Part shown: positions 2,913 to 29,358 of the stretch, piece by piece | Layout of the letters: each line of letters starts with the position of its first letter | Numbering within the stretch: the first letter of the stretch is position 1 | Origin: Emiliania huxleyi CCMP1516 | Lineage: Eukaryota | DNA: 32,434 bases | Direction of reading: 5' to 3' | Assembly: GCF_000372725.1 (NCBI RefSeq) | Contig: NW_005201240.1 | Coordinates: forward strand, 104,240 to 136,673 | Made by a program: the position numbers and the translations under genes | Notes under the pieces: generated by a model | What the model saw: only the letters and a program-made list of their open reading frames with translations | Told to the model about the DNA's origin: nothing | Database searches by the model: none

Positions 2913-3930
2913 TCAAGCATCAGACCGCATTGCGCTTATACCGCCGCCGGCTCCGTCTGCGACTGCGTCTCTGTCGCGCTCTCGGTCCTTCCTCTTCTCG
3001 CGCTTCCTCAAAGCCTTGTTAGCTTTCTTCAGCTCCTTGGCCAACTGGGGCGCAGCCTGCGCCTCCGCCTGCTTGGTCCGCTTCTTCTCGTCCCGAAGCA
3101 GCAGCACCTCCGCCCGCGCCTTCTCCTCCTCGCTCAGGCTCTCGCGGTCAGCAGCGTAGCGCTGCAGCAGCGACTGATTGATCTCGCGCTTCCACTTCTC
3201 ACTCTTCTCGAGCAGCCTGCGCCGGCGGCTCTCCTCGTCGCTCTCCTCCTTCTCGTCGCCAGGCTGCCGCCGCCGCTTCTTCCCCTTCTTGCGTTGCTGT
3301 CTCGCCGCCTCTGCTCCCGCCGCCGCCCCTGCTCCCGCCGCCTCCTCCGCCGCCAAGGAGGAGGAGGGACGACTGGCCGCATCCACGTCGCTCAGCCGGC
3401 CCACGTCGGCAGCGCACCCAACCACCGTCTTCTCGTCGTCCTCCGACTGCCCGCCGCTCGGTGACTCGTCCTGTGGGAGCGCCGGCGGCGGCTGCGGCGG
3501 CGGCTGCGGCGGCGGTTGCGGGGACGACGGCTGCGCGGCACCGGATGCGCCGGGTGCGGCCCGTCTTCCGGTTCCGCTGCCAGCTCTGATGGAGGTCGAC
3601 CGAGTAGCTGAAGCCTCGAGCCTCGTACTCGCCGCGGCCGCCCGCTTCTGCGTCCGAGATGGCGGCGAGCACGCGAGCGTCGGCAGGCACCCACCCGCCC
3701 TTGAGCTCTACCTCCCACCGCGGCGCCGGCACCGCCGCGGGAGCAGCCGCCGCCACCGCGCGCGCATCGGCAGCCGGGTCCGTGTTGGGCTGGAGCGTGG
3801 CGGGCTGGAGCGTGGCGGGCTGGCAGGCGCTGGTTGGTGGCTGGCCGTGGGCGGGCAACGCCGGCGCTCCGCTCGTGGCAGCAGGCTGTCGGCCATCGAC
3901 GCGGGCAACGCTGCCACCACTGCCGCCAAT

Positions 3931-9655: not shown

Positions 9656-11199
9656 TCACACCGGAAGCAAACCCTTTGTGCGAGTCCTGCCACTGCCGCT
9701 GGCCCCACCGCTGCTGCTGTTGCCGTCGCGCGCCTTGGTCCGCGCGAAGGCGACGACGCCTGCCACCGCCGTGGCGACGCCCGCGCAGTTGGCCACCTAG
9801 GTTCGGGGTCAGGGTACAGGGTGAAGCTAGGTTCGGGGTCAGGGTACAGGGTGAAGCTAGGTTCGGGGTCAGGGTACGGGGTGAAGCTAGGTTCGGGGTC
9901 AGGGTTAGGGTCAGGCAAGGTCAGGGTCATGATCGAGGTTAGGGTGGGCAGTTGGCCGCCGAGAGCGGCGTCGCAAACACTGCCGCCGCAGCGCCGATGA
10001 CGAGCACGCGGCGCAGGATGTTGAGCACGGCGTGCCTAATCCCGATCACTCTCGGGCGCTCTCGGGCAGTCTCAGGCTCACCTCGGGGTGCGGAGCAAGC
10101 GGCGCACGTCGCGATGCTGACGCGTGCGAGGACGGCGAAGCTGACGCCTGCTCTCCGGCAACCTCGTGTCATCTCGTGCAATCTCGGGTCAGCTCGACGG
10201 CGAAGCTGACGCCGTTGTACAGCGCGTGCGCCGCGCCGTTGGCGGCGAATAGACAAGCGACACGCGCGGCGCCGGCGGCGCTGCCGCCGGCCGCGCTCGC
10301 CAGCAGCGGCCGCGCCTCAAGGATCAGCGCCGTTGGGAGGAGCACGAGCAGGCCGCCTAGTCTCGGGCAATCTCGGCTGATCTCGCCGCATCTCGGGTGA
10401 CCTCGGGAGCAGGAGCCGGGCTGCCGCGCGCGACGTGGTAAAAGAGGCATGCGTCCGAGCGGGCGGCGGGCGAGCCGGCATGGCGGCGCTTGAGCGACTT
10501 GGTCAGCACGGCGCGGCCTATCCATTGACCAACTGAGCTGACCAACGCATGAGGAGGGTCGAGCGACGCGGCTAGCACGGCGCGGCCAGAGAAGGCGACG
10601 TTCGACGCGAGGGCGAGGGCCCCGCCGGTGGCGCTGAAGGCGCCGCCGCCGGAGCAAGCGGTCGCGACGCCGGCGACGATCGGGAGGAGGGCGAGGAGGG
10701 TGGCGGGCCGCTCCCGCTCGCCCAGCACCAGTCCGGCAAGAGCGACCTACTCGGCTCGAGGCCTGCAGCTTGGAGAGGCGCCGTGTGGAGCGGCAGCGGC
10801 ATGCCGTGCAACTGCCGTGGTGAGAGGCTCGGCCGCCTTGACCGTCTCCACAAAGCTCGGCGCGGCGGCGGCGATGGCGGCGTTGGTGAGCAGGAAGCCG
10901 AGCGTGTATGTCAGGCTCACGCCGCGCACCGCCCGCAGCTCGACGTCACTCAGCGGGCCGCGGGAGGAGGACGGCAGCAGGCAGCGTGTGCCTGGTGCGG
11001 AGGCTCGCTCGTGCTGTGGAGAGGCAAAATTCATATTGCTTGTGGTGGTGCGATGCACACCCGCTGCTGCCACGGCAAACTGGACGGCGGCAAGGGTCGC
11101 TGGGCAGGCGAGCTCCTGCAGCACGATCTTGGCGGTCCAGATGGCCGCGATGGAGGCTGCGTACCAGGTTGCCACCAGCGGGCCGACGCGCAGCTTCAT
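9656..11199 (-). CDS. Triose-phosphate transporter (TPT/DMT) family protein, multi-exon
   Basis: ATG 11199 (MKLRVGPLVATWYAASIAAIWTAK); PSFVETVKAAEPLTT; LLPIVAGVA; ALASNVAFSGRAVLTK; NGAAHALYNGVSFAVLARVSIATHAVLNILRRVLVI; FATPLSVANCAGVATAVAGV; stop at 9656-9658. Introns include 9797-9959, 10148-10212 and 10518-10586. Confidence 0.9.
9797..9945. repeat. 30-nt tandem repeat (CTAGGTTCGGGGTCAGGGTACAGGGTGAAG, about 3.6 copies) grading into TTAGGG/TCAGGG-like hexamers; intronic
   Basis: Units start at 9797, 9827, 9857 and 9887, inside the last TPT intron. Confidence 0.9.
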
Positions 11200-11432: not shown

Positions 11433-11979
11433 AATACTGCACAGCCGCGGGCGGGCCGGGGCGGTGATTTTGTGGAAGGAATGGCCCAGTCTAATTAGCC
11501 CTGGATAGGCAATGCATACGCCTAGTTGGGCCTCGAATCGCCCGACCGCGTCCCGGTCTTTGCCGTGGGATTTGTTTGTGACGCCACCGCACGCCCACCC
11601 CGCGGCCGGCCGGAGGCGTGCGACCGCAGCGCGCCCGCCGTCAGCTCGACGGGGCGCGCATGTCAGCGAGAGGTTTGCCGGTAGAGCGATCCCGGTCTTG
11701 TCGAACGCGAGCCCCGCGCCACGGTTGCCAGCCGTGCCTTCGCGAGAGTCGCCCTCGAGCCGCGTCCCGTCGGCACTACCCTCGTGCCTCGAGTGCGTGT
11801 CGCTTTGGTTGGCGACACCCACTCGTCGAGGGCAGTCCGGCCGACGGGAGCCTGTCGCGCGCCGGCGACGAATGCGGCGTGTGCCGGTGGTTTCGAGTTC
11901 GAAGCGACGATGGCACACAGAGCTGATGTGCCGATTTTTCTTTTGCGAGGCACTCACCTGGCCCAGGGTCTTCACGGCC

Positions 11980-13070
11980 ATGGCACCCGGCTGCTCGTCA
12001 TTAGACCCCATCCTCTCCGCGCTGGCTATCCCTCCTGCCACCACGGCTGAGGGGCTGCGCGCCGCGCAGAAGGACGAGTTCCACGGCAACGAGTTCTCCC
12101 TGCTCGTATCGCACGCACTCGGCGCTCTCGCCGGCCCGCAGTGGGTGCAGAAGCACCGCGAGGAGGTCCGGGCGGCGGCGCGCCTCGCCTACGGCGGCCT
12201 CTCGACGGCACGCCTCGCGCAGACGCCGGGCGAGGAGTACTGCGACATCACGTGCGTAGACGCGGCCACGGGCCAGCCGCTGCCGCTCCGCCGCCGCTGG
12301 ATCGCCGTCTTGATTGGGGCGCTGACGCCGTACCTTGCTCTCCGCCTCGAGGCGCGGCTCGTCTCCGCGGCCCGCTCCTCCGAGTCGCCCCTCGCCGCCG
12401 CCCTCGCCGCGCGGCTCGGCTCGTTCGGCGAGGCGCTCCGCCGGCTGCAGCTCGCTCTCTTTTGTCTCGGCCGCGCTCCCCGTCGGCTGGTCGACGTGCC
12501 GCTCGGCATCGCGCACGTGCGGCACGGCGCGCGGGCCGGGTCGGCCTCGTCGCCGTACCGTTCCCTCGGCCTGCTCATGCTCTGCCAGCTCGCCCTCTCC
12601 TCCCTCGCCCTGCTCGCAGAGCTCCGCGCCGCCGCCTCCGCCCGCAGCCGCCTCCGCGCAATCGCGTCTGCCGGCGAGCGGCGAGGGCGGGCTGCCTGCC
12701 GCCTGCCGCCGCTCCCCTCCTCAGCGTGGCCGCCCGCGCGCGCAGGAGAGACGGACAAGGAGCGGAGAGCTGCCCCTCCGCCGCCCGCCGCCGCCGCCGA
12801 GTCTGCTCGCCGGCGCACGGCTCCGCTCTGCTCGCTGTGCCTCTCTCCGCGCCGCCAGCCGACCGCGGGCGTTTGCGGCCACATCTTTTGCTGGGAGTGC
12901 TTCCACGCTTGGGCGCGGCCGCACCGCTGCCGCCGCCGCCGCCGCCCCGAAGACACGCGTCCACGCCCCCAAATCCTCTGCCGCCGCAGGTGTCCGAGAA
13001 GCCAGAGTGCCCGCTCTGCCGCGAGGCGCTGCAGCCGCAGGCGCTACGTTGCCTGCACGGAATGGTCTGA
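11980..13070 (+). CDS. PEX10: Peroxin-10 (Pex2/Pex12 N-terminal domain plus C3HC4 RING)
   Basis: LRAAQKDE and QTPGEEYCDI motifs. The RING CSLC...CGHIFCWEC..W|VSEKPECPLCR is completed by removing a GC-AG intron at 12913-12989. Stop at 13068-13070. Confidence 0.9.
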
Positions 13071-13210: not shown

Positions 13211-14659
13211 TCAACGCTCACAAGTCTCAGCCCAGCCGCTACCGCACGCCCACGCCTCGATCTTCTTGGGCAGCAGCTGGTTCGACAGGTCCTCTCCGTG
13301 GCCTAGGCAGCCGCTCTTGCCCGCGCCCCAGGTGAAGACGGTGCCTTCGGCGGAGATGGCGAGGCTGTGGTCGGTTCCCGCCGACACAGCGACGACGCGC
13401 TGGTCAGCATAGGCCTCGACCTTCTTGGGCAGCAGCTGGTGCTGCTCGTCGCCGTGGCTCAGCTTGCCATAGAATCCTTCGCCCCAGCTCCAGACAGCGC
13501 CGTCGGCAATGAGGGCGAGGCTGTGGTGCTCTCCAGCCGACGCGGTGATGACGCGCTGGCCAGCCAAGGCCTCGATCTTCTTCGGCTCCAGCTGGGCCTG
13601 CCGGTCGCCGTGGCCCAGCTTGCCATAGCCTCCACCGCCCCAGCTGCAGACGGCGCCGTCGGCGGTGAGGGCGAGGCTGTGTTCGCCTCCAGCCGACACA
13701 GCGACGACGCGCCGCTCAACCAACGCCTCGACCTTCTTGGGCAGCAGCTGGCTCTGCTGGTCGCCGTGGCCCAAGCGGCCAGAGTTGCCACAGCCCCAGC
13801 TCCAGACGGCGCCGTCGGCGGTGATGGCGAGGCTGTGGTCGTTTGCTGCCGTCACAGCGACGACGCGCTGGCCAGCAAAGGCCTCGACCTTCTTCGGCTG
13901 CGGCTGGCGCTGCGCGTCGCCGTGGCCCAGCTTGCCCCCACCTCCATGGCCCCAGCTCCAGAGGCTGCCATCGGCGGTGAGGGCGAGACTGTTGTCGCAT
14001 CCAGCCGACACGGCGAGGACGCGCTGGGCAGCAAAGGCCTCGACCTTCTTGGGCAGCAGCTGGTCCTGCTCGTCGCCGTGGCCCAGCTGGCCGTCGCCTC
14101 CACTGCCCCAGCTCCAGACGGCCCCGTTGGCGGTGAGGGCGAGGCTGTGCGCGGTTCCAGCCGCCACGCTCACGGCGCGCTCGCCACCCAGCGGAGAAGG
14201 GAGGCGGGTCGGCGTGTTGAGCTGCGTCACGCCCTCGCCGTGGCCGAGTAGCCCAGGGAAGACTGCCTCATTGCCGCACGACGAGAGCCGCCCCTCGCCG
14301 TCGATGAAGACGCTGTGCCGCCAGCATGCCGCCGCCCTCGCCGGCGGGTTGGACTCGCGCAGCAGCGCAGCGAAGCACAGCCACTGCACGGCGCAGCTCT
14401 CGCCCTCTGGCTGCGCCGGCAGCTCGTAACCGCGCTCTTGCCCCCACAAGCGGATGCCCTCCTTCGCAAGCGAGGCGTGAAAGAGCGGCGAGACGGCCGC
14501 AACGCGAGCGATGTCGAGGGGGTCGCAGCGAGAGACGACGCGCACGAGGAGGTCGGTGGGGAGGTCGAGGAGGCGGGCGGGCGGCGGCGCGTTTGGCGAG
14601 CGAGCGGCGGTGGAGGCGGAGGCGAGGCGGCGCGAGCGGCGGCGCGGCGGGGTGGACAT
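13211..14659 (-). CDS. F-box-like plus RCC1-repeat (7-blade propeller) protein, intronless
   Basis: N-terminal LLDLPTDLLVRVVSRC..DIARVAAVS (F-box-like), then about seven 52-aa repeats of VAVSAGxxHSLALTADGAVWSWGxGxxGxLGHGD, visible as a 156-nt DNA period. Confidence 0.9.
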   Translation of the reverse strand: MSTPPRRRSRRLASASTAARSPNAPPPARLLDLPTDLLVRVVSRCDPLDIARVAAVSPLFHASLAKEGIRLWGQERGYELPAQPEGESCAVQWLCFAALLRESNPPARAAACWRHSVFIDGEGRLSSCGNEAVFPGLLGHGEGVTQLNTPTRLPSPLGGERAVSVAAGTAHSLALTANGAVWSWGSGGDGQLGHGDEQDQLLPKKVEAFAAQRVLAVSAGCDNSLALTADGSLWSWGHGGGGKLGHGDAQRQPQPKKVEAFAGQRVVAVTAANDHSLAITADGAVWSWGCGNSGRLGHGDQQSQLLPKKVEALVERRVVAVSAGGEHSLALTADGAVCSWGGGGYGKLGHGDRQAQLEPKKIEALAGQRVITASAGEHHSLALIADGAVWSWGEGFYGKLSHGDEQHQLLPKKVEAYADQRVVAVSAGTDHSLAISAEGTVFTWGAGKSGCLGHGEDLSNQLLPKKIEAWACGSGWAETCER

Positions 14660-15676
14660 CGCGAGAAAAAGAATTTAAACTCGCGCCACCCACACCCGCC
14701 ACTGGAACGGCTGCAGGGTCGTGGGGCCGCCCCAGCGGCTCCGCACCAGGCGGTTGGGCCGCGAGGGCCGCCACCGTACCCGCCGCCCCTGCCACCGCCT
14801 CCACCCCCGCCGCCGACGGGGCCGCCACCGTATGGACCCGTTCGGAATAACCTGGGGGACCCGGGACCGCCCCGCCGGAGGTTGGTGTACCCGGGAGGAG
14901 GAGATGGGGGAGGGGAGTTGCCGCGGTACGATAGCGGACCCGCCGGCGGGCCGGAGGGCCGTGGCCGGAGGGCCCCGGGGGGGGCTTGGAGTCAGTTGTC
15001 GGAGGAGGCGAGAGATGAGCTGACGCGGCCCCTGCGAATGGAGTCGGGACGTACGAGCTCACCGGGGGAAGGCCCGTCGCAATGGCAACCGGACCACCGC
15101 GACCTTCGACAGGGAGGGCCACGCCTCCCCGAGCCTGGAGAGGAGCCGGCGGAGGGGGAGGGCGAGCCGAGAACGATAGAGAGGCCGCGGGTGCGGGCGC
15201 GATTCGCCGACCAGGGAGAGCCGGCCCGACCTCCCGGGGAGGGGTGGCGACGAGACACAATGCCGCCACTCCCGCCCGGGGAGGCCCCACCCGGGCTGTC
15301 GGCTCCCTCGGGGCCAATGGGGCTAGCCGACGGAGGTGGGGCGGAGGGACCGCCCCCGAGGAAGAGACATCAGAAACGACTGCAGAGGCAGTGGGGCGAC
15401 GCCCGAAAGGCGAGCAAGAGACCGAACCAGACTGAAGATTCACCCTGAAGGGGGGGGGACGAGGCCGGGCAGTGTACACGTTAGACAGTCGTGTGTGTAC
15501 GTGACGGGTGGTGTCGTAGTGTCCGTGTCCACTAGCTCCGACGTGTAGAGGGGGCGTTCTGCAGTTAAGGGGAAACCCGGTACACGGAGCCCTCTCGGAG
15601 AACTGTGTTTACTTTAAGGCCCTTGCCCTGCGAACGCGCACCCCCCCCTAGGGGTCAGGGCTCTCTAGCCCGTAGC

Positions 15677-16127: not shown

Positions 16128-19100
16128 CTAGATTGCCTGGTCGAACTGGCTCGTCGTCTTGCTGAAGTGGAACGGCTTTCGGCGGTCGCGGCCTCGCACG
16201 CGCCGGTTGCAGAGCGTGCCGCACACCGCGGCGGTCGCCCCTCCTCCGACGCCCTCCGTCTCGAGGTAGACGTCGAGCAGCATCCTCGCGCGGTGCAGCA
16301 CCCAGAGGAGGTGGTACGGTGCCCCCTGCCTGTCCACCTGACAGAGACGGGGGGGCGGGGAGGGGGTTGCAACACGCCCAGGGAAGGCGACCTGAGCTGG
16401 CCCACTCGGCGGTCTGCGCCGCGCCTCCGGGCCGCTGGGGCGAGAGGAGCTCCGCCCCCAGTCTCTCGGCTCCACCTCGGCTCATCCTGGCATCTCGGCT
16501 CATCTCGGCTCCATCTCGGCTCCATCTCGGCTCGATCTCGCCTCTGCCGCCGGGGCGTTGAGCTCGGCCTCCATCTGCAGCAGCTGGTTGTCCGCCGCCT
16601 CGCCTGCAGGAGAGTTCCCGGAAGGTTCGCACTCACGCGGCTCCCCTGCGGCAGCCTGCTGCCTCCGCCCCCTCTCGCCCGCGTGCCGCTCCGCCAGCCG
16701 CAGGGAGGACAGCGAAGGCAGCAGAAGCAGGGTCGGGCTGCAGCTCGTTCAAGAAGTCCGCGTTCTACGCATCCAGAATCCGCTACACCGTGAGCTACAA
16801 CGTGCTGAGCGACGCCTGCTGCCCCTGCAGCCCCTCCAGGAAGGGCCGCTTCTCCACATTCTGCTCCGGCACCTGCGTGGGCTCGGCCGCCCTCGGATGC
16901 CGCTGCAGCTCACCGACTCGCGCTGCCTCCGATTCGATCTCGAGGCGGATGACGAGCCACTGGTCCCGGGTCCTGCGCCANNNNNNNNNNNNNNNNNNNN
17001 NNNNNNNNNNNNNNNNNNNNNNNNNNNNNNNNNNNNNNNNNNNNNNNNNNNNNNNNNNNNNNNNNNNNNNNNNNNNNNNNNNNNNNNNNNNNNNNNNNNN
17101 NNNNNNNNNNNNNNNNNNNNNNNNNNNNNNNNNNNNNNNNNNNNNNNNNNNNNNNNNNNNNNNNNNNNNNNNNNNNNNNNNNNNNNNNNNNNNNNNNNNN
17201 NNNNNNNNNNNNNNNNNNNNNNNNNNNNNNNNNNNNNNNNNNNNNNNNNNNNNNNNNNNNNNNNNNNNNNNNNNNNNNNNNNNNNNNNNNNNNNNNNNNN
17301 NNNNNNNNNNNNNNNNNNNNNNNNNNNNNNNNNNNNNNNNNNNNNNNNNNNNNNNNNNNNNNNNNNNNNNNNNNNNNNNNNNNNNNNNNNNNNNNNNNNN
17401 NNNNNNNNNNNNNNNNNNNNNNNNNNNNNNNNNNNNNNNNNNNNNNNNNNNNNNNNNNNNNNNNNNNNNNNNNNNNNNNNNNNNNNNNNNNNNNNNNNNN
17501 NNNNNNNNNNNNNNNNNNNNNNNNNNNNNNNNNNNNNTGCGAGGCGGAAGGTGCGCGAGGGGAAGAAGGGAGGAAACGGGGAGGGGAAGAAAAGAGGAGG
17601 GAGGGGGGAAGCGGGAAGGGGGGGGGGGGGGGGGTCTCTCTACCTCTGTCCAGGCGGTGAGGGCGGAGACGAGGGGCGCGGGCGGCATGAGCGGCTGCGC
17701 GGGCGGGAGCGGCGCGGTCCGGCGCTGCTCGAGGTGCTGCAGCTCCGTGGCGAGGTCGGCGCGGGCGGACACTCGCGCGGAGATCGCGTCGATGACCTGC
17801 TCGAAGCGGCGCAGGGCGGGTTAGGGTTAGGGTTAGGGTTAGGGTTAGGGTTAGGGTTAGGTTTCGATGACCTGCTCGAAGCGGCGCAGGGCGGGTGAGG
17901 GTTAGGGTTAGGGTGAGGGTTAGGGTTAGGGTTAGGGTTCGATGACCTGCTCGAAGCGGCGCAGGGCGGGCAGCGCGTGCGCAGACACGGCGCCGGACGG
18001 GAGGTCCGAGCCAAGCTCCTGCGCCTGGGACGCACTCAAGAGGGGAGGGGTGAGGCTAGCTGGACGGTGAAGAGGCGGCAGGCTCCGAGCTCGAGCTGCT
18101 TCACCCAGCGGAAAGGGACGGAGGGAAGCAGCGCCACGAGCGCCTCGTCCGGCGCCAGGCCGGAGGGGAGGGTGGCGGGCGGGAGGTCGGCGCCGGAGTC
18201 GAGGTCGAAAAGGTTGACGAGGAGGGAGGAGGGCCTGGTTGACGGAGGAGGAGGGGGGTGGCTCGGTTCGTTCCGCGCGGCCGGGACAAAGTCTCGAGAG
18301 GGGGGAGCAAGGCCTGTCGATCAGCTGCGCCGCGAGGAGTCCCGCGGAGGCGAGGCAGCAGAACTGCAGCTGCAGCTCCGCCCCTCCCTCCGCGACTTCT
18401 CCGTCGTCCGCAGCCTCGCCCTCCTCCGCCTACCCCGCCAGCAGCCCACTCCCTCGTGAGGAGGCTGCGCGTGTGACGAGGCTCCCCCCCCCCCCCCCCC
18501 CTCCCCCCCTATCCCCTATCCCCTCCCCTCCTACCACCCCTCCCCCCTCGCGCCTCTCCGTCGCCGTCTGCCTCGCCCCTCCCCGCCGCCTCCCGAGCAG
18601 CCGGCCGGAAAGTCACCCTCACGCGCAGCGGGTGCAGCCGACTCGCCTCGTCCTCCTCGGCCTCCTCGTCGCCCTCCTCCTTCTCGTCCGCCTCCTTCGC
18701 GCCGCCGCCCCCCGCCCCGCCGCTCGCCGGGGCGGCGCCGGGCCCTTCCTCGGCCGAGGCGGCGCTCGAGACCTGCAGGAAGGGGCAGGGAAGGGTCGGA
18801 GAAGTCTCGCGGACACTTCCTCCGGCGGAGGCGGCGGCGAGGCTCACTCGAGATATGGGGAGATGTGGGGGAGATATGGGGGAGGTTTATATCGGCGGCG
18901 AGGCTCACTCGCTGCCGCTTGGCGCGGCGCGGAGATGGAGAGGCGAGGGCGGTGCCTGCGGGCGGGGCGGGAGAGTGCGGTGCGGCCGGGCGGCGGCGCG
19001 GGTGTCGGCAGGCGGTGTTGGAGAGCTCAGAGAGAGATGTTCAGAGAGGGCGGTGGCGAGGGAAAGGGGTGCCGGTGTGGTGGTGTAGCCCCCCCCCCCC

Positions 19101-20249
19101 CCCCNNNNNNNNNNNNNNNNNNNNNNNNNNNNNNNNNNNNNNNNNNNNNNNNNNNNNNNNNNNNNNNNNNNNNNNNNNNNNNNNNNNNNNNNNNNNNNNN
19201 NNNNNNNNNNNNNNNNNNNNNNNNNNNNNNNNNNNNNNNNNNNNNNNNNNNNNNNNNNNNNNNNNNNNNNNNNNNNNNNNNNNNNNNNNNNNNNNNNNNN
19301 NNNNNNNNNNNNNNNNNNNNNNNNNNNNNNNNNNNNNNNNNNNNNNNNNNNNNNNNNNNNNNNNNNNNNNNNNNNNNNNNNNNNNNNNNNNNNNNNNNNN
19401 NNNNNNNNNNNNNNNNNNNNNNNNNNNNNNNNNNNNNNNNNNNNNNNNNNNNNNNNNNNNNNNNNNNNNNNNNNNNNNNNNNNNNNNNNNNNNNNNNNNN
19501 NNNNNNNNNNNNNNNNNNNNNNNNNNNNNNNNNNNNNNNNNNNNNNNNNNNNNNNNNNNNNNNNNNNNNNNNNNNNNNGTGGGTTTCTGCTCGAGGAGGC
19601 GCTGCAGCGGGAGCGAGATGGTGGTGAGCGACGCCAGCTGCGCCTGCAGCCCCTCCAGGAAGGCCCGCTTCTCCGCATTCCGCTCCGCCGCCGCCGTGCG
19701 CTCCGCCGCCCTCGCGTCCCGCTCGCCGCAAAGCGACTCGCGCTGCCTCCGCTCGAGCTCGAGGCGGTTGAGGTGGAACTGGTGCGGGTCGGCCGCCTTG
19801 GACGTGCCGCGCAGCTCCTCCGGGGCCGCCGCCGCGAATTCGCTCTCGGGCAGCAGCTCGATCCGCGGGCCCGCGTCCTGCCGAAAGTCGCGCAGGTGCG
19901 TGATCTCTCGCAGAAAGTGGTTCTTCTCGTACTGCAGATTCTGAAGCTTGAGCTCGGCGGCGTCGACCCCCGCGTTGGCCCGCTGCGTGCCCTCCTTATA
20001 CTCCCCCACCAGCTCCCACACACGACGGTTGAGCTGCTTGAGCTCGAGCAACGCCAGCCCCGAGCCGGCGACCAGCTCGGCCGCGTCGCTCCCGCCGGCG
20101 GCGCCGTCCGCCTTTCTGGCCATCGCCGCGGCCAGCTTGCCGCGAAGCGTCTCTGTGAGAGTCTCGAGCCGCTCCAGCTCCGAACCGCCCTCGGGCGAGG
20201 GGTCGGAGCCAGGCGGCATGTTGTCTGCGATTTCTTCACTCGTCCACAT
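16128..20249 (-). CDS. THOC5: THO complex subunit 5 (FMIP family), multi-exon, interrupted by two gaps
   Basis: LLELKQLNR...VDAAELKLQNLQYEKNHFLREI...IELLPESEF...DPHQFHLNRLELERRQR...SLPLQ; later exons HPLRV, LLVNLFDLDSG, PFRWVKQL, DNQLLQMEAELN, LLDVYLETEG, VRGRDRRKPF; stop at 16128. The start could be 20249 or 20219. Confidence 0.9.
16464..16540. repeat. 10-11 nt period (ATCTCGGCTCC-like) intronic tandem repeat
   Basis: Repeated CTCGGCTC(C)AT units in a THOC5 intron. Related GAGAT-core repeats occur at 10160-10190, 10360-10400, 18850-18885 and 27726-27812. Confidence 0.8.
17789..17970. repeat. Interstitial (TTAGGG)n tracts separating three copies of a 32-nt exonic segment (THOC5 intron 17797-17946)
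   Basis: TCGATGACCTGCTCGAAGCGGCGCAGGGCGGG at 17789, 17864 and 17939, with about 7 TTAGGG/TGAGGG units between each pair of copies. Confidence 0.95.
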
Positions 20250-20289: not shown

Positions 20290-22345
20290 TGGATATTCGC
20301 ACTAAAGTGCTCAATGGATGACGAGAGGCGCGAGCTCCAGAGGCCAGTCTTGTGGACTAGGCCACTCGCGCCCCTCCCGGCCATGCCGGTAGGAGCCGGG
20401 GCGGCGCTCGTATAGCAAGGCCCGTGGGGCACTCGCCACGAGGCTGCTCCCATATTGGCTCGGTGGGTCCACGTATGCTAGGCGGAGGCTGATACGTGGT
20501 TAGAGTGCCGCAGAGGTAGGGCTGGGAAGGCTCCTAGCGGCTCCCGATATCGTCGCGCAGTCCCTCGCGAATGCGTGCGCGCCTGCGCGAGTTGCTGCAG
20601 CAGGGCGCCTTCGGCACCGGGTCCCGCAGGTCGCCGATTGCGCGGTCGATCGCCGCGCGCCGCCGCTTGTCGCCCGTGCTAGGTCGGGGGGCGAAGCGCT
20701 CCCAGATCGACTGGAAGGAGCGGGACAGGTCGGCCGCGAGGTCCGGCCATTCGACGTGTGAGAAGGGCGTGCTGCCCATCTCAATGAGTAGCTCCCGATC
20801 CCCCCGGGACGGGAGATCAGCGAGGTTCGCCCCCGACGCGACGTATTCGAACCAGACGCTGATGTCGAGCGCCAGGCACAGGGTGTGGAAAATGTGGATG
20901 AGGCGCGCGCAGTCCGCGTCCTTGCAATCGCCCTTACCGAGACCGAACAGTGCGCCGGTGTTATCCACAAAGCAGATCACGTCCCTGCCGCGGAACTGGC
21001 CTGGTCGGGACAGGATCGCGACGAGCGGCGCCAGCGTCTCCAACTGCGTGATGTACTGCTCGCGCTTAGCCCATCCGGCGATGATACGGGCCGGGACTTC
21101 GATAGACAAGTCGCGCCAGCGAGACTCCGTATCAAGCGGGTCATATAGCGCGACACCGATCCGGGCCGGCTGTGCCGCCTTGGCCTCGTACATCGCGTCC
21201 GTGTAGAGAGCTATCGGCGGGCGCGAGTGGCGGTCGCCGCAAAAGTGAAACCTGCGCCGGGGGATGCGCGGCAGCAGGAAATAGAGGAAGATCAGTGCCT
21301 CCCTAACGACGGCCGCAGTGACGCTCTCGTCGAGGGCTCCGCTTTGTCCTCCCGCCCCGGTGGCACGGCGGAGGATCCCTATAGCGGCTCTGCCAATGCG
21401 CCCGGCGGTTGCTGATGAGCGGACGAACTCCAGCTTGCCGAAGAAGTGCCTCGCCTCGGCTGACGGTATGCCGTGCTCGAGGTACCGCTCTATGGAGTCA
21501 ATCAGCTTTGCAATCCTCTCGGGCTTAGATTGCATGAACACTATGCCTTGCCGGAACTGAGAAAGGTCCGTGACAACGCCCAGGAACGGGTTAATCTCGC
21601 GGGGAGGAACATCCTTTAGGCCCTCCGCGAGCGGTACGCCAAGCCAGAGATGTAGCTGGCGCAGCACCACTTTGGCCGACGCCGCTGCNNNNNNNNNNNN
21701 NNNNNNNNNNNNNNNNNNNNNNNNNNNNNNNNNNNNNNNNNNNNNNNNNNNNNNNNNNNNNNNNNNNNNNNNNNNNNNNNNNNNNNNNCCTCCGTACTCC
21801 CAGCCACGAAGCGGCTGTGGGGTCTCCTGGAATGCGCTCAGGGCGGCATCCATCTCGGTGTCAGGCAGGGCACGGCCTTCTGACACACTGGCGAGAGACA
21901 CGGAGCTCTCGCCAACTTCTGCGGGCTCGGCCGGCTCGGCTCGGCCAGCAGGCTCGGCCTCCGTACTCCCAGGCCGCGAAGGCGCTGTGGGGACCTCACG
22001 GAATGCGCCCAGGGCGGCATCCATCCCCGTGTCAGACCTCTCTGGCAGAGCTGAAGCGAGGCCAGGAATGTCGGAGAATGCGAGCAGTGCTGCCTCCGAC
22101 ATTGGGCTGCGCGAGGCGCAGCACAATAGCGGCGCGCGGCGTGGAGCGCGCGCGCCGGCTGGCTGGGTTGTGCCAGCAGAAGAAAGATCGCTCGTGGCGC
22201 GGCGGCGAGGCTCGGGCTCGCTCGCGCGCACGAGAGACCGTCGCCCTTCGGCGAATGAAGTTAGAATGGATTACGTAAATCCATATTGGCACATCGATCG
22301 CTACCAGTAAAGAAAGTCGTGCCGGGCTAAAGCCCTTACTCGTAG
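20290..22345 (-). mobile_element. DIRS/Ngaro-like retroelement (RT C-terminus plus RNase H); boundaries approximate
   Basis: Contains the RT/RNase H ORF (20534-21688), an N-terminal ORF segment (ATG 22102) with an internal approx. 170-nt-period duplication, and a hairpin-rich 3' region. No tyrosine recombinase is visible. Confidence 0.65.
20534..21688 (-). CDS. Reverse transcriptase C-terminus and DIRS-type RNase HI domain
   Basis: PFLGVVTD (late RT motif) and GKLEF, then RNase H acidic motifs YTDA, ITQLE, FVDN and NLADLPSR. The RT catalytic core would fall in the 100-N gap. Confidence 0.85.
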   Translation of the reverse strand, partial: AAASAKVVLRQLHLWLGVPLAEGLKDVPPREINPFLGVVTDLSQFRQGIVFMQSKPERIAKLIDSIERYLEHGIPSAEARHFFGKLEFVRSSATAGRIGRAAIGILRRATGAGGQSGALDESVTAAVVREALIFLYFLLPRIPRRRFHFCGDRHSRPPIALYTDAMYEAKAAQPARIGVALYDPLDTESRWRDLSIEVPARIIAGWAKREQYITQLETLAPLVAILSRPGQFRGRDVICFVDNTGALFGLGKGDCKDADCARLIHIFHTLCLALDISVWFEYVASGANLADLPSRGDRELLIEMGSTPFSHVEWPDLAADLSRSFQSIWERFAPRPSTGDKRRRAAIDRAIGDLRDPVPKAPCCSNSRRRARIREGLRDDIGSR

Positions 22346-22400: not shown

Positions 22401-23692
22401 GGCACGGGCAGAGGAACGAGAGAAGAATATAGGGTGGATAAAGCGCCTGTTCACGGCATGGAGGGTGAGCCACACCGAACGTACCGAGCGAAGAGCCGAA
22501 CGGAAGGAGGACGGGGAAGATGACTCCGAGGAGGACGAACCAGAGAGAGAGATTTTTAGCAATACCAAACAAATCTAACACTCACACGTCATTTGGGGCC
22601 TTGGAGCCCTGTTCACGCGCGCGCGAGACGTGCAGACAGGGTTGCCAGGTGAGAGCGAATGGCGCGGTTCACGCCTCGCACAACAGAGAGAGAGATGCGC
22701 TCTGCATGGTGGGACATAAAAGAACCAGTGGAAATTCAGTTGTCAGATGTCACGATGCATCCGAAGGGGACCCCAGCGCCGGCATCATCCGTAGAGGCAC
22801 GAGTGTTCGAAGTGAGAGTGGACCTGAGCAACAACATGACCTGGAGGCAAATGATCGGAGTGGGAGTCAGAAATGTGGTCCTTGCGCGAGGGGAGCTCGA
22901 TAGACTCGAGGGGCCAGGATATGCAGCAAGGAGGGCGGAGCTGCGCCGAAAGGCGAAAGAAGCCGAGAGAACAAGGGAACGGCAGGCGGCGGCGGCGCAG
23001 GACGAGGCAGAAGAGAATGACGCGACAGAGGAGGAAGTGACAAGGGAGAGAACGACGAGAGTGGGACGGCCGCGAGGTGGCATGAAGGTTGCAGCGAGAA
23101 TCGGCGAGAGACTGCGAAAAGAGATAGGAAGAGGCAGACTCCCTAGGGTGGGCGACGGCTAGCGCATCACACTCCTCTCCTTAAAATCCCTGTGTGGTGG
23201 CGGCGTGCCGTCCTCCCATCCCTCCCTTGGGTTGTCTGTTTTCTTTCTTTTTTAGAATTGTACAGGCTACGAAATGAGACGATCCGGGGCGTTCTGGATA
23301 TCTCCGAGAGGGTGGGCACGCGTGTGTCGTGACGGACTGCTCTGGTTTGGAGGCTCCAGCGAGTATTTGTGGAGAGCGCATCGAGATTCAATCGAGATTG
23401 CGGAGCTACACGTCGAGGTCAAAACGTGCAGGTGTGAGGCCGCTGGTGCCTCCACCGTCCCTTGGAGACGACCCCACTGCCCTGGGGCGTCTTGATACGA
23501 TCAAGGGCGAGCACACGGCGCCCCGGCGCGCGTGCCCACGAAACGGTGGCACAAGGGAGGGTTTTCACTCAAAAATCGCCCCCTGCTCGTGCGGGGGCGG
23601 GGTGAAATGCAAATGCCGACCGGGCCCAGGTGATCCGTTTAGCGTTTTGCCCCGTGTCGTATGGCTCGTGCACTTTTGATAATAACTAACAA
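22401..23692 (+). mobile_element. Probable 3' fragment of a non-LTR (LINE-like) retrotransposon: ORF tail plus 3' UTR
   Basis: Purine-rich degenerate coding sequence ending RLPRVGDG* at 23162, partly duplicated at 29145-29358. It is followed by about 500 nt of hairpin-rich sequence ending in an A-rich tail (ATAATAACTAACAA). No RT or endonuclease motif is visible, so the class is inferred. Confidence 0.5.
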
Positions 23693-25131: not shown

Positions 25132-27214
25132 TCACGCTCCCTTGCTCCGTGGCTGGTACTGGAAGAAGGAGAAGGCGGTGTTTTGGCGGAGCGAGGTCTG
25201 CATCGCCTCGTAGAGACGCAGCCCCTCCTCGCGGTACACCTGGATCGGGTCGGTGCCAGAGTACGCCTTGAGGCCCGCAAAGTCCTTGACGTACCCCATC
25301 GCCTTCATGTGCGCCTTCCAGAGCGTGTCCGTCTGCGTCAGCGCGAGGAAGCGGCCGGACTCGACCGCAAGACCCGGCCGGACGCTGTCCAGCTCGGCTG
25401 CCTTGGCGCGCAACGCCTCCTGCACCGCCGCATGCGCGCGCTCCTCGGCGCCGTCGCCCTCGAGGTCGGCGGCGGTGAGCGGCACCGCGGGGAAGAACTG
25501 CTGCAGCTTGGCGAGGGTCGCCTCTGCGCCCGACGCATCCAGGTTGCTCTTCAGGATGTCGGAGGCGGTGCCGGCCGCGTGGGCGGCGAGGGTGTCGAGC
25601 ACCTCGTCGGCCGAGCCGCGCAGCACCGCGGCGCGGGTCCGGTAGGTGTCCTCCCTCTGGACGGCGAGCACCTGGGGGGGTGGGGGTGGTGGGGGTGGGG
25701 GCAGCGGGTGGGGGGGGGAGGGCGCAGCGCGGGGGGGGGGGGGTTGTTGCAGCGGCGCCTCCTCGAACTCGAAAAGCTTCTGGCGGAGCTCGTAGTAGTA
25801 GCGCTCGACCTTGGGCTGGGTCTCCTCCACCACCCGCTGCACCTGCCCCGACTCGAGGGGCTGGTCCTCGGAGATGCGCATGAAGTCGAGCAGCCCCTTG
25901 ATCTTGTCGCCGCCGAAGAGGCGGAAGATGCGGTCCTCGAGCGAGAGGAAGAAGTGCGTCGAGCCCGGGTCGCCCTGCCGGCCCGCGCGGCCGCGCAGCT
26001 GACCGTCGATCCGGCGCGAGTCGTGCAAGTTCGTGCCGATGACGTGCAGCCCTCCCGCCTGCAGCACCCGCTCCTTCTCCGGCGCGAGCTCCTCGGCGAA
26101 CTCTTCGCCGACCGCCTCGAGCGCCTCGCGCGCCTCGTCCTCGACCGACTCCTCGAACACCGCCGCCGATGAGGCCGCCACCGCGAGCAGCTCGTCCAGC
26201 GCCTAGGCGGAGAGGACCCACGCGACGCTCAGGGAAGCCTCCACGAAAGTGCCACGGCGAGCAGCCCTCGTCCGGCGCCGCGAGCTCCGCCCGCTCGTGA
26301 CCCTCGGCGTCGTCGTCCGCCGCCGCCGCCGCGCGCGACTGGGCGAAGCGCGCCGCCGCGCGGCCGACAGCGGCCTCCGCCTCCTCCGACACAGCGCGCG
26401 GGAAGAAGCCGTCGCGAGGCGGCGTGACGCCGGACAGGCCGGCGGCGGCGGCGAAGGCGGTGCGCAGGTAGAGGCGGGCCATGAAGGCGGGGTTGCCGCC
26501 GAGCAGGATGTCGGTGCCGCGCCCAGCCATGTTTGTCGAGATAGTGACGGAGCCCTCGCGGCCGGCCTGGGCGACCACCTCCGCCTCGCGCTGCGCCGCC
26601 TCGGGCGCCGCGGAGAGGACCTGCGGGGGGGGGGGGGGGGGAATCCGGAAAGGGGGGGGGGGGGAAGTGGAAGAACAAGGGAAGAGGAGGGAGGGGGGAA
26701 CCGAAGAAGAAAAGTGGGGAAACCGGAGGAAACCGGAAACGGAGGGGAAAATGGGAGGAGGCCAAGCCAGGGTTTCCAATCTCCCCTCGGGGTTGACCCC
26801 CAGCTCGGTCAGCTTGTCCCAAAAAACCTGAAACCCCCCCACCGAAGTGGTCCCAACCAGAATCGGCCGGCCGCTCCTCCGCAGCGAGAGCAGCTCGGCG
26901 AGCGCCGCGTTGGACTTCCCGCGCGTCGTCTTGAAGACCTGCGGCCGCGGCTCCGGCCAAGCGCTCAGGAGCTAGCTGCCCGGCAGGGTCTAAAAAAGGG
27001 TCCGGGTTCGGGAGTCACAGAGTCTGGGATGTCGGAGCGCAGCGACGGGAGGACGGGCGGCACGTCGACCACGTCGAGGCCGTAGATGGTCGCGAACTCC
27101 TCTGCCTCGGAGAGGGCGGTGCCCGACATGGAGGAGAGCTTGCGGAAGCGGCGGAAGAGCGACTGGTAGGTTACAGACGCGACCACCTCCGTCTCCGGCT
27201 GCACCATCAGCCCC

Positions 27215-27246
<32 letters not shown>

Positions 27247-28981
27247 GCCCCACCGGCGCCCCTCCATCACGCGGCCGGAGAACTCGTCGATGATGACCGC
27301 CTCGCCGCCCTGCACGAGGTAGGACCGCTCCTTGACGAAGAGCTCCTTCGCCTTGAGGGCGTTCGACACGTACGACGCCCACGGGTTGGTCGGCTCGTAC
27401 AGGTCGCCCACCGCGAGCGCCTGTGAACAGCTCACGCCGTGAAGAGGCGAAGTGCGCAGCGGTGGTCGCGCCTCCCGCCGCGAGAACCTTTTCGCAATCG
27501 CGCGTGCCCTTGTCGGTCAGCGAGACCGTCTGCTCCTTCTCGAAAACGTCGTAGTGAATCCCGCGCTCGAGCACCGCCGCCAGCTTGCTCGCCGCGCCTA
27601 GTCGGTGACCACACCGCCCTGTGCGAGCGAGGACAGCAGATGCACGCCGCCGCCCGCTCGCCGCGCCGAACTTGTCGACCGGAGCGTCCGTCTTGCCGGA
27701 GATGATGAGGGGCACGCGCGCCTGCAGATAGGGGGAGATAGGGGGAGATAGGGGGAGATGAGGAGCGGCACGCGCGCCCGGAGATGCAGCCGAGATGAGC
27801 CGAGAGGTAGCCGAAGTTCGTCTTGCCGGAGATGGCGAGCGGCGCGCGCGCCTCGTCGATCAGCACCGAGTCGCCCTCGTCAACAACGCAGTAGTTGAGC
27901 TCGCGCCGAAGCACCACCTGAGCCATGCAGCGGCCCCCGCACCGTGTGAGCACCGTGTGAGTGAGCAGTGGTGTAGCAGCAGCACAACCCCGCAGCGCGC
28001 GCGCCTCCTCCGCAGTCACGGCCAGGTTGTCGCGGAGATAGTCGAAGCCTACAGACAAAGCAATGCGGCCTCCGGAAACAAGAACTGTGACAAGGCGGGG
28101 TTGTCGCGGAGGCAGTCGAGGCCGAGCTCCGAGTTGGTCACATACGTCACGTCGCTCGCGTACGCCTCCCGCCGCGCCGCCGTGTCGGAGCCGGACTGGA
28201 CGAGGCCGACACTCAGCCCGAGGAAGGCGTACACCTGCCGTGCGGTCGGGACGGGCCGTGAGCAGCAGGACGGCAGGAGGAGGAGGAGCGGAGGAGGCGG
28301 AGCAGCGCGCGCTCGAGGAGCAGAGTGGAGGAGCAGGGGCAGGGGGGGGGGGCGGACCTGGCCCATCCCCTCGGCGTCGCGCCGGGCGAGGTAGTCGTTG
28401 ACCGTCACCACCATCGCGCCCTTCCCGCTTAGCGCGTTGAGGTACACCGCCCCAGTCGCCACCAAGGTCTTTCCCTCGCCGGTGCCCATCTGCGCCAGCT
28501 TGCCGTCGTTCAGCGCCATCGCGCCGACGAGCTGCACGTCGTAGTGGCGGAGGTCGAGCGTGCGCCAGGCAGCCTCGCGCACCACAGCGAACGCCTCCTC
28601 GAGCAGCTCCTCCTCCGTCTCGCCCGCCGCGAGCCGCTTCCGGAACTCGGCCGTCTTGGCGGCCAGCGCCTCGTCCTCGAGCGCCTCAATCTCGTCCTCG
28701 AGGTCGTTGATGCGAGCGACCCGCTCGGTGTACGCCATCACCGTCCGATCGTTTGCCGCCGTGAAGGCGGCCGTCTTTGGGTCACTTTTGCTGTCGCTCG
28801 CCTGCTCGCCGCCACCGCGGATGGCCTCGCTCACCTGGTCGAGCACGCCCATCGCCGCGCTCGCCGTGCGCGTGGGCGACGCCACGGCAGGACGCTGGTG
28901 CGTGCACACGCGCACGGCGGGTGCTAGCGGCAGGTAGGCGGTGGACCCGCCGACGAGCAGCGACGCCAGCGCGGCCAGCAT
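25132..28981 (-). CDS. secA: Nucleus-encoded plastid-targeted preprotein translocase SecA, about 10 introns
   Basis: [125 protein letters not shown]. The N-terminus resembles a signal peptide plus transit peptide ([18 protein letters not shown]...). Confidence 0.95.
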
Positions 28982-29144: not shown

Positions 29145-29358
29145 GGCACGGGCAGAGGAACGAGAGAAGAATATAGGGTGGATAAAGCGCCTGTTCACGG
29201 CATGGAGGGTGAGCCACACCGGACGTACCGAGCGAAGAGCCGAGCGGAAGGAAGCCGGGGAAGATGACTCCGAGGAGGACGAACCAGTGGAAATCCAGTT
29301 GTCAGATGTCACGATGCATCCGAAGGGGACCCCAGCGCCGGCATCATCCGTAGAGGCA
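29145..29358 (+). mobile_element. Second copy of the LINE-like coding fragment
   Basis: Near-identical to 22401-22543 joined directly to 22729-22799. It may extend left to about 29060. Confidence 0.7.

Follow-up and report, generated by a model that had tools for sequence, protein, structure and literature searches.

Where most new introns come from has long been an unsettled question, and an intron in the THOC5 gene of Emiliania huxleyi raises it in traceable form: base by base, its sequence can be followed to its own exons and to a telomeric repeat. How did such an intron arise, and is it one of a kind? The window, i.e., the whole 32.4-kb stretch of DNA analyzed here, is eukaryotic, rich in GC and interrupted by five N gaps. 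One of its SecA exons matches the E. huxleyi CCMP1516 protein at 99% identity, which places the DNA in E. huxleyi or a very near Gephyrocapsa. The initial annotation had named the gene THOC5, and the name is borne out by a match to PF09766 (E 8e-34) and by P0006, a transcript-derived protein of 711 aa that maps exon by exon onto the minus strand of the window (16131..20219). The gene has at least eight introns and is broken by two assembly gaps.

The intron in question is 150 nt long (17797..17946, minus strand), begins with GT, ends with AG, and lies in phase 0 between Q465 and V466 of P0006; its limits follow from RNA contigs, from the sole GT-AG placement and from the P0006 translation. RNA contigs and P0006 likewise define its neighbors on the same strand, the exon on its 5′ side (17947..18024) and the exon on its 3′ side (17644..17796). 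The whole repeat structure spans 182 nt. As originally described, it holds three identical 32-nt copies 75 nt apart. They start at 17789, 17864, and 17939, and two telomeric spacers of 43 nt lie between them; these starts, with their period of 75, are the only exact occurrences of the 32-mer in the window. Every copy consists of 24 nt of the first exon joined to 8 nt of the second. In sense order, the first copy (17939..17970, minus strand) supplies the 24-nt exon end, the donor GT at 17946 and an 8-nt intronic copy of the next exon start; the middle copy (17864..17895, minus strand) is entirely intronic and carries an AG|GT at 17872/17871, a possible zero-length recursive splice site; and the last (17789..17820, minus strand) supplies a 24-nt intronic copy of the previous exon end, the acceptor AG at 17797 and 8 nt of exon. 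The spacers, given on the plus strand, are a tract with two TGAGGG variants that reads CCCTAA on the sense strand (17896..17938) and a (TTAGGG)6 tract with a variant end (17821..17863). They account for 86 of the 150 nt, are the sole telomeric arrays in the window (TRF score 343), and consist of near-perfect TTAGGG, which is the telomeric repeat of G. huxleyi (10.1101/2024.05.26.595999). On the sense strand of the (TTAGGG)6 tract, CTAAC motifs lie 25–61 nt upstream of the acceptor and are candidate branch sites.

That this sequence behaves as an intron was first argued from the reading frame, and the argument holds. The 150-nt excision has 33 equivalent placements, only one of which (17946/17797) gives GT..AG and none GC..AG; its removal restores RRFEQ-VIDAISARV, and the unspliced frame meets a stop after four codons (VIEP*). 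Splicing of a single 75-nt unit was rejected as an end product, as stops remain. The proposed RNA check of the junction gave the expected mRNA form: contigs X14 (transcriptome) and X12 (metatranscriptome), from two studies, skip exactly 150 nt, with 17797 and 17948 on adjacent contig positions (1092/1093 and 1027/1028, respectively; their alignment table has no joint row at the repeat), and both also lack the next two upstream introns. When five window exons are joined at these sites, their translation agrees with P0006 at 231 of 232 residues, and P0006, P0008, P0010, and P0014 all read through the junction. GT-AG ends and absence from mRNA, the criteria for a spliceosomal intron, are thus seen at the contig level in samples other than the source DNA; X14 and X12 prove the mRNA form and not strictly splicing of the window allele, as the samples they come from could carry insert-free alleles.

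Genomic data were also searched for the state of the allele. No piece of the genomic run X1 covers 17698–18103, a hole that is uninformative, and the runs that contain the stretch do so with word shares of 0.55–0.71, insufficient to separate alleles. None of 16 candidate short genomic read-through proteins revealed the allele state, and no intron-less conspecific genomic allele was present among 12 THOC5 loci (484 pattern matches, metagenome contigs), none of them conspecific. Pattern matches in viral contigs (0/197) and prokaryote genomes (0/147) included no THOC5 relatives. Could the structure then be an assembly artifact, or a null allele that is not spliced, given how gappy the draft genome is? 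At a distance of 250 nt the contig runs into an N gap, its edges are homopolymer-rich, and no independent genomic record across the repeat was seen, X1 included. However, the two repeat units differ at three positions, unlike a collapsed or doubled read, the structure measures just 182 nt and its intron is cleanly bounded by GT and AG, and others like it are present in further genes as well as in independent metagenome contigs. We consider an artifact or null allele very improbable.

Between the two 75-nt units, 72 of 75 positions agree, and all three differences fall in the spacers. Because of this identity and the equal 43-nt spacer lengths, the units probably derive from one insertion that was doubled later; two independent telomere additions were rejected on the same evidence. 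Each unit by itself runs from GT to AG and is close to the local median intron length of 83.5 nt. Single origin also bears on the register argued for initially, in which each tract was said to start in phase after a copy ending in GGG. On the plus strand GGG does end the copy before each telomeric tract, but if the tracts are one doubled event the agreement counts only once, and a single such event would be expected by chance in 3–8% of cases in these exons. Concerning age, every intronic copy still matches the exons at 100%, and the intron sequence is therefore young; moreover, the copies span the spliced junction, so the template was intron-less, whether genomic or cDNA.

The claim of a young intron by gain accordingly keeps its first half, and the second half has to be weighed against a relative. 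The closest THOC5 found, on the metagenome contig L001 (approximately 60% amino acid identity), is sister to the window sequence in a tree of nine rows (88/96). It has only one intron, of 448 nt and GT-AG, exactly at the Q|V junction and in the same phase. This intron has no telomeric repeat and no exon copy, and is unrelated to that of the window; comparison with its own exons found no similarity (scores 1 and 0). A position shared with distant lineages had been named as the observation that would turn gain into remodeling, and the outcome is split: L001 has an intron at the same junction, whereas the more distant L003, L004, L005, L006, and L007 have none (with L001, six of the 12 loci were compared at this junction; L003 and L005 are near-duplicates and L007 may be a transcript). 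Introns in this region favor certain sites: AG|G[TC] accounts for 9 of the 16 local ones and occurs 24 times in the L001 coding sequence. One of the eight window THOC5 introns would fall on the single L001 site with a chance of about 17% at AG|GT-type sites, and of about 2% if introns were distributed evenly among all G[TC] sites. Since chance co-location at an AG|GT site is as high as about 17%, parallel gain stays likely. In Daphnia, parallel gains account for 43 of 90 new introns, as given in the accessible text of PMC4202315. If gain is the correct reading for the window, then the L001 intron is either a parallel gain at a favored AG|GT site or an intron lost in the window lineage before regain. 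A common intron position need not imply a common intron history. Elsewhere in L001, short telomeric tracts occur at 3683–3730, accompanied by 10 nt of flanking sequence in inverted copy; they seem to lie at the 3′ end of a candidate intron on the minus strand that has CCCTAA on its sense strand.

The same facts can be read as replacement, in which the position is old, inherited from the ancestor common with L001, and only the content is new. Two routes would lead there. Either the old intron broke and was mended with spliced mRNA or cDNA as template and with telomeric filler, or a duplication-plus-filler became stacked on its donor, after which the old intron was deleted precisely between short repeats. 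The identical position and phase in L001, in a gene with no other intron, speak for replacement, as do insertions across existing donors both in L003/L005 and at 18832–18911 of the window (described below). However, no remnant of an old intron is present, the L001 intron is dissimilar to its exons, and the stacked route demands that the first 8 nt of the old intron equal the window-lineage exon start, even at a synonymous site where L001 has another base. Replacement also takes more steps than parallel gain. It is a serious rival, albeit an unlikely one in our estimate.

Gain is the reading we favor, with moderate confidence: the 150-nt insert would have arisen recently at an intron-less THOC5 junction, through a staggered break repaired with telomeric filler. 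Nicks 32 nt apart would leave a plus-strand 3′ overhang ending in GGG, to which about seven TTAGGG units would be appended; fill-in and joining would then double the 32 nt and yield a 75-nt unit, later duplicated by slippage or unequal exchange. With CAG|GT in the duplicated segment and branch-like CTAAC motifs on the C-rich strand, the insert could be spliced cleanly and hence tolerated.

What wrote the TTAGGG units is a separate matter. The initial annotation had proposed a break followed by telomerase extension, and the geometry does fit a staggered break with a 3′ overhang ending in GGG. The evidence does not, however, require telomerase, because fillers of 10–11 nt, which a TTAGGG template could not write, share the same anatomy at other sites. 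We give telomerase about an even chance; it would fit the polarity and the register, by analogy with mammalian interstitial telomeres. Only slightly less probable, and compatible with the gain reading, is a repair polymerase that switched template by microhomology priming and copied a telomere or interstitial array already present. Apart from the non-telomeric fillers in the same anatomy, it could draw on interstitial TTAGGG tracts, which the available text of PMC13518057 describes as pervasive in the coccolithophore Calcidiscus, and microhomology priming should predict an in-register start as well. Against template switching stand the near-perfect canonical repeats, running 5′ to 3′ on the G-rich strand from the GGG end, and the same polarity in inserts attributed to telomerase (PMC2246262, in the part available). 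Another reverse transcriptase seems improbable as the writer. Strand bias was dropped as a test of telomerase, as selection for branch sites would presumably predict the same bias. If the telomerase version is true, telomerase makes new spliceosomal introns, including their CTAAC branch sites.

Whether the THOC5 intron is an isolated case was addressed in 16 introns defined by transcript-derived proteins, nine in SecA (via P0026) and seven in THOC5 (via P0006); one SecA intron of poor sequence and one THOC5 intron that runs into a gap were left out, and two genes were scored in all. The scored regions are 25672–28357 (SecA) and 16338–18908 (THOC5), both on the minus strand. Downstream exons start with GT or GC in 16 of 16 cases. 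With the first two bases excluded, the intron start resembles the start of the next exon in 10 of the 16 (p < 0.05, with 240 mismatched pairs as the null); permutation of the summed score gives a p of about 5e-5, and five introns exceed the null maximum. Six introns have no trace of duplication, and 3 of the 10 positives are weak or of low complexity. Measured identities of the exon copies range from 22/29 up to 11/11. Four of five other measured introns are just 76–85% identical and hence older than the telomeric intron, which alone among the 16 also has a copy at its 3′ end. The signature thus appears at varying ages in 10 of 16 neighboring introns.

Fillers accompany several of these duplications. 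In SecA, an intron at 27722..27851 (minus strand) has three degenerate copies of the next exon start, the first at 29/34, interleaved with two 10-nt tandem fillers, and can be called an older twin of the telomeric intron. THOC5 itself has a 19-nt duplication across an existing donor, with a 10–11-nt filler between the copies (18832..18911, minus strand). A TPT-family gene on the minus strand has two GC-AG candidate introns. The first, of 163 nt (9797..9959), has a 12-nt terminal duplication (11/12); its removal restores the frame, and the homologs P0113, P0115, and P0117 are colinear, while no transcript of its own was seen. Its filler consists of degenerate CCCTAA/CCCTGA/CCCCGA, since organized as a 30-nt higher-order repeat. 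The GGG register, anticipated across loci, is found at the single THOC5 event and is missing from this telomere-like candidate. The second, of 65 nt (10148..10212), has a 17/17 terminal duplication and a tandem filler of about 10 nt, and homologs read through as expected.

In another haptophyte the same anatomy is seen as an insertion polymorphism. L003/L005 and L004 form an allele pair (1.9% mismatch over 4758 aligned nt), and L003/L005 at about 11955–12059 have a 105-nt insertion relative to L004 at about 4158, stacked on an existing THOC5 donor. The insertion is a 20-nt exact duplication (exon end plus GTG) with a 10-nt tandem filler, and P0017 and P0021 suggest a third allele with a different insertion at the same donor site. 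Two further sites in L003, 6997–7096 and 19116–19228, have direct repeats of 32 and 43 nt around the same 10-nt filler; on the minus strand, the latter could form a GT-AG intron of 70 nt.

These observations suggest that target duplication with tandem-repeat filler is likely a general haptophyte route to introns, of which the THOC5 intron would be one young member. In E. huxleyi, GC donors make up 56–65%, attributed to GC content in the accessible text of PMC4028052. As an alternative, copying of next-exon starts may explain this excess: if donors are copies of the first bases of the next exon, the GC-donor majority would follow. We venture, only tentatively, a broader extrapolation, that of an ongoing, genome-wide haptophyte intron factory without transposons, in which breaks would duplicate 10–45 nt of exon, a polymerase would fill in simple repeats, and telomerase would be one writer among others. 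The E. huxleyi genome paper reportedly found 10–11-bp tandem repeats enriched in introns. Genomes of E. huxleyi strains allow a test at scale, using presence/absence, duplication length, filler type, register, and strand.

Other features of the window concern THOC5 and its neighbors. Positions 16781–16972 hold a diverged copy (81% over 193 nt) of the gene's own 5′ coding region (19600–19790); it sits within the 3′ half of THOC5, adjoins an assembly gap and is followed by stops. One X1 contig (depth 21) joins 18193 and 18332 through four other letters, a join that removes one intron and parts of both exons and that represents either a deletion allele or a paralog. P0013 and P0001/P0009/P0011 derive from THOC5 transcripts that retain introns; the intron retained in P0013 is unlike that of the window at 18313–18235, hinting at rapid intron turnover among strains. 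Outside THOC5, a long gapped ORF at 20534–22270 (minus strand) has motifs that recall what we take to be the RT/RNase H region of DIRS-type retroelements, and a Pfam search of 20537–21688 gave no match. A single-exon gene at 13211–14674 (minus strand) encodes an F-box and RCC1 repeats, and a dispersed repeat is present in two pieces, 22401–22799 and 29145–29358, which are 97–99% identical.

How does the THOC5 intron relate to known systems of intron gain? Unambiguous gains by break repair were few as counted in the available part of one review, with only five in 2012 (PMC3443670). The same source reviews gain through tandem genomic duplication of an AG|GT exon segment, a route also credited to Hellsten 2011 in the accessible text of 10.1101/051292. 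As in tandem-duplication introns, both THOC5 splice sites descend from a single exonic CAG|GT that was duplicated, and excision gives back the exact coding sequence. In contrast to them, the THOC5 case has three copies and twice 43 nt of foreign telomeric filler rather than duplicated gene sequence only; a 32-nt duplication without filler would presumably be too short for an intron. An Introner origin, for which a family of like intron bodies, often with terminal inverted repeats, would be expected at many sites, was considered and rejected, as self-comparison of the window (E 1e-4) turned up neither a further copy of the intron nor an inverted match to it. Introners, as presented in the accessible text of 10.1101/2022.06.06.494994, which reports them in a Chrysochromulina MAG, likewise co-opt a splice site from a target-site duplication; their duplications are of 4 bp and they form sequence families, whereas the body of the THOC5 intron is exon copies and simple repeat only.

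Searches for precedents covered open-access literature at the level of titles and abstract openings. Within that scope, no intron made from exon duplication plus telomeric filler was described, nor was the exon-copy pattern in haptophyte introns; the Daphnia, Introner, and Calcidiscus supplements could contain such cases. A supposed report of telomeric sequence in a ciliate intron is not borne out by the accessible part of PMC1805493, and the parts available of PMC13685798, PMC6387519, and a Mesodinium preprint add nothing further on such introns.

The closest parallels are the staggered-break neointrons of Daphnia pulex and mammalian short interstitial telomeric inserts. According to the accessible text of PMC4202315, the Daphnia neointrons have an exon-derived direct repeat at the far end and an inserted filler, as in THOC5, together with secondary internal duplications and frequent parallel gains at one site. 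The differences lie in the repeats shared with the exon, 4–12 bp in Daphnia compared with 32 in THOC5 and 11–43 in the other haptophyte cases, and in the filler, which is a tandem repeat in THOC5; the string “telomer” has no match in the main text of that paper. The mammalian inserts, as characterized in the available part of PMC2246262, resemble the THOC5 case in their TTAGGG and in having nucleotides in register at the broken 3′ end; those with target duplications form a class of their own, with 6 of 130 loci in rodents and 4 of 25 in primates. They are not described there as making introns, whereas the THOC5 insert lies in coding sequence and is spliced out. Overall, the parts are known, namely AG|GT duplication, intron gain by break repair and telomeric insertion at breaks; the THOC5 intron combines them, as a variant of known routes of intron gain.
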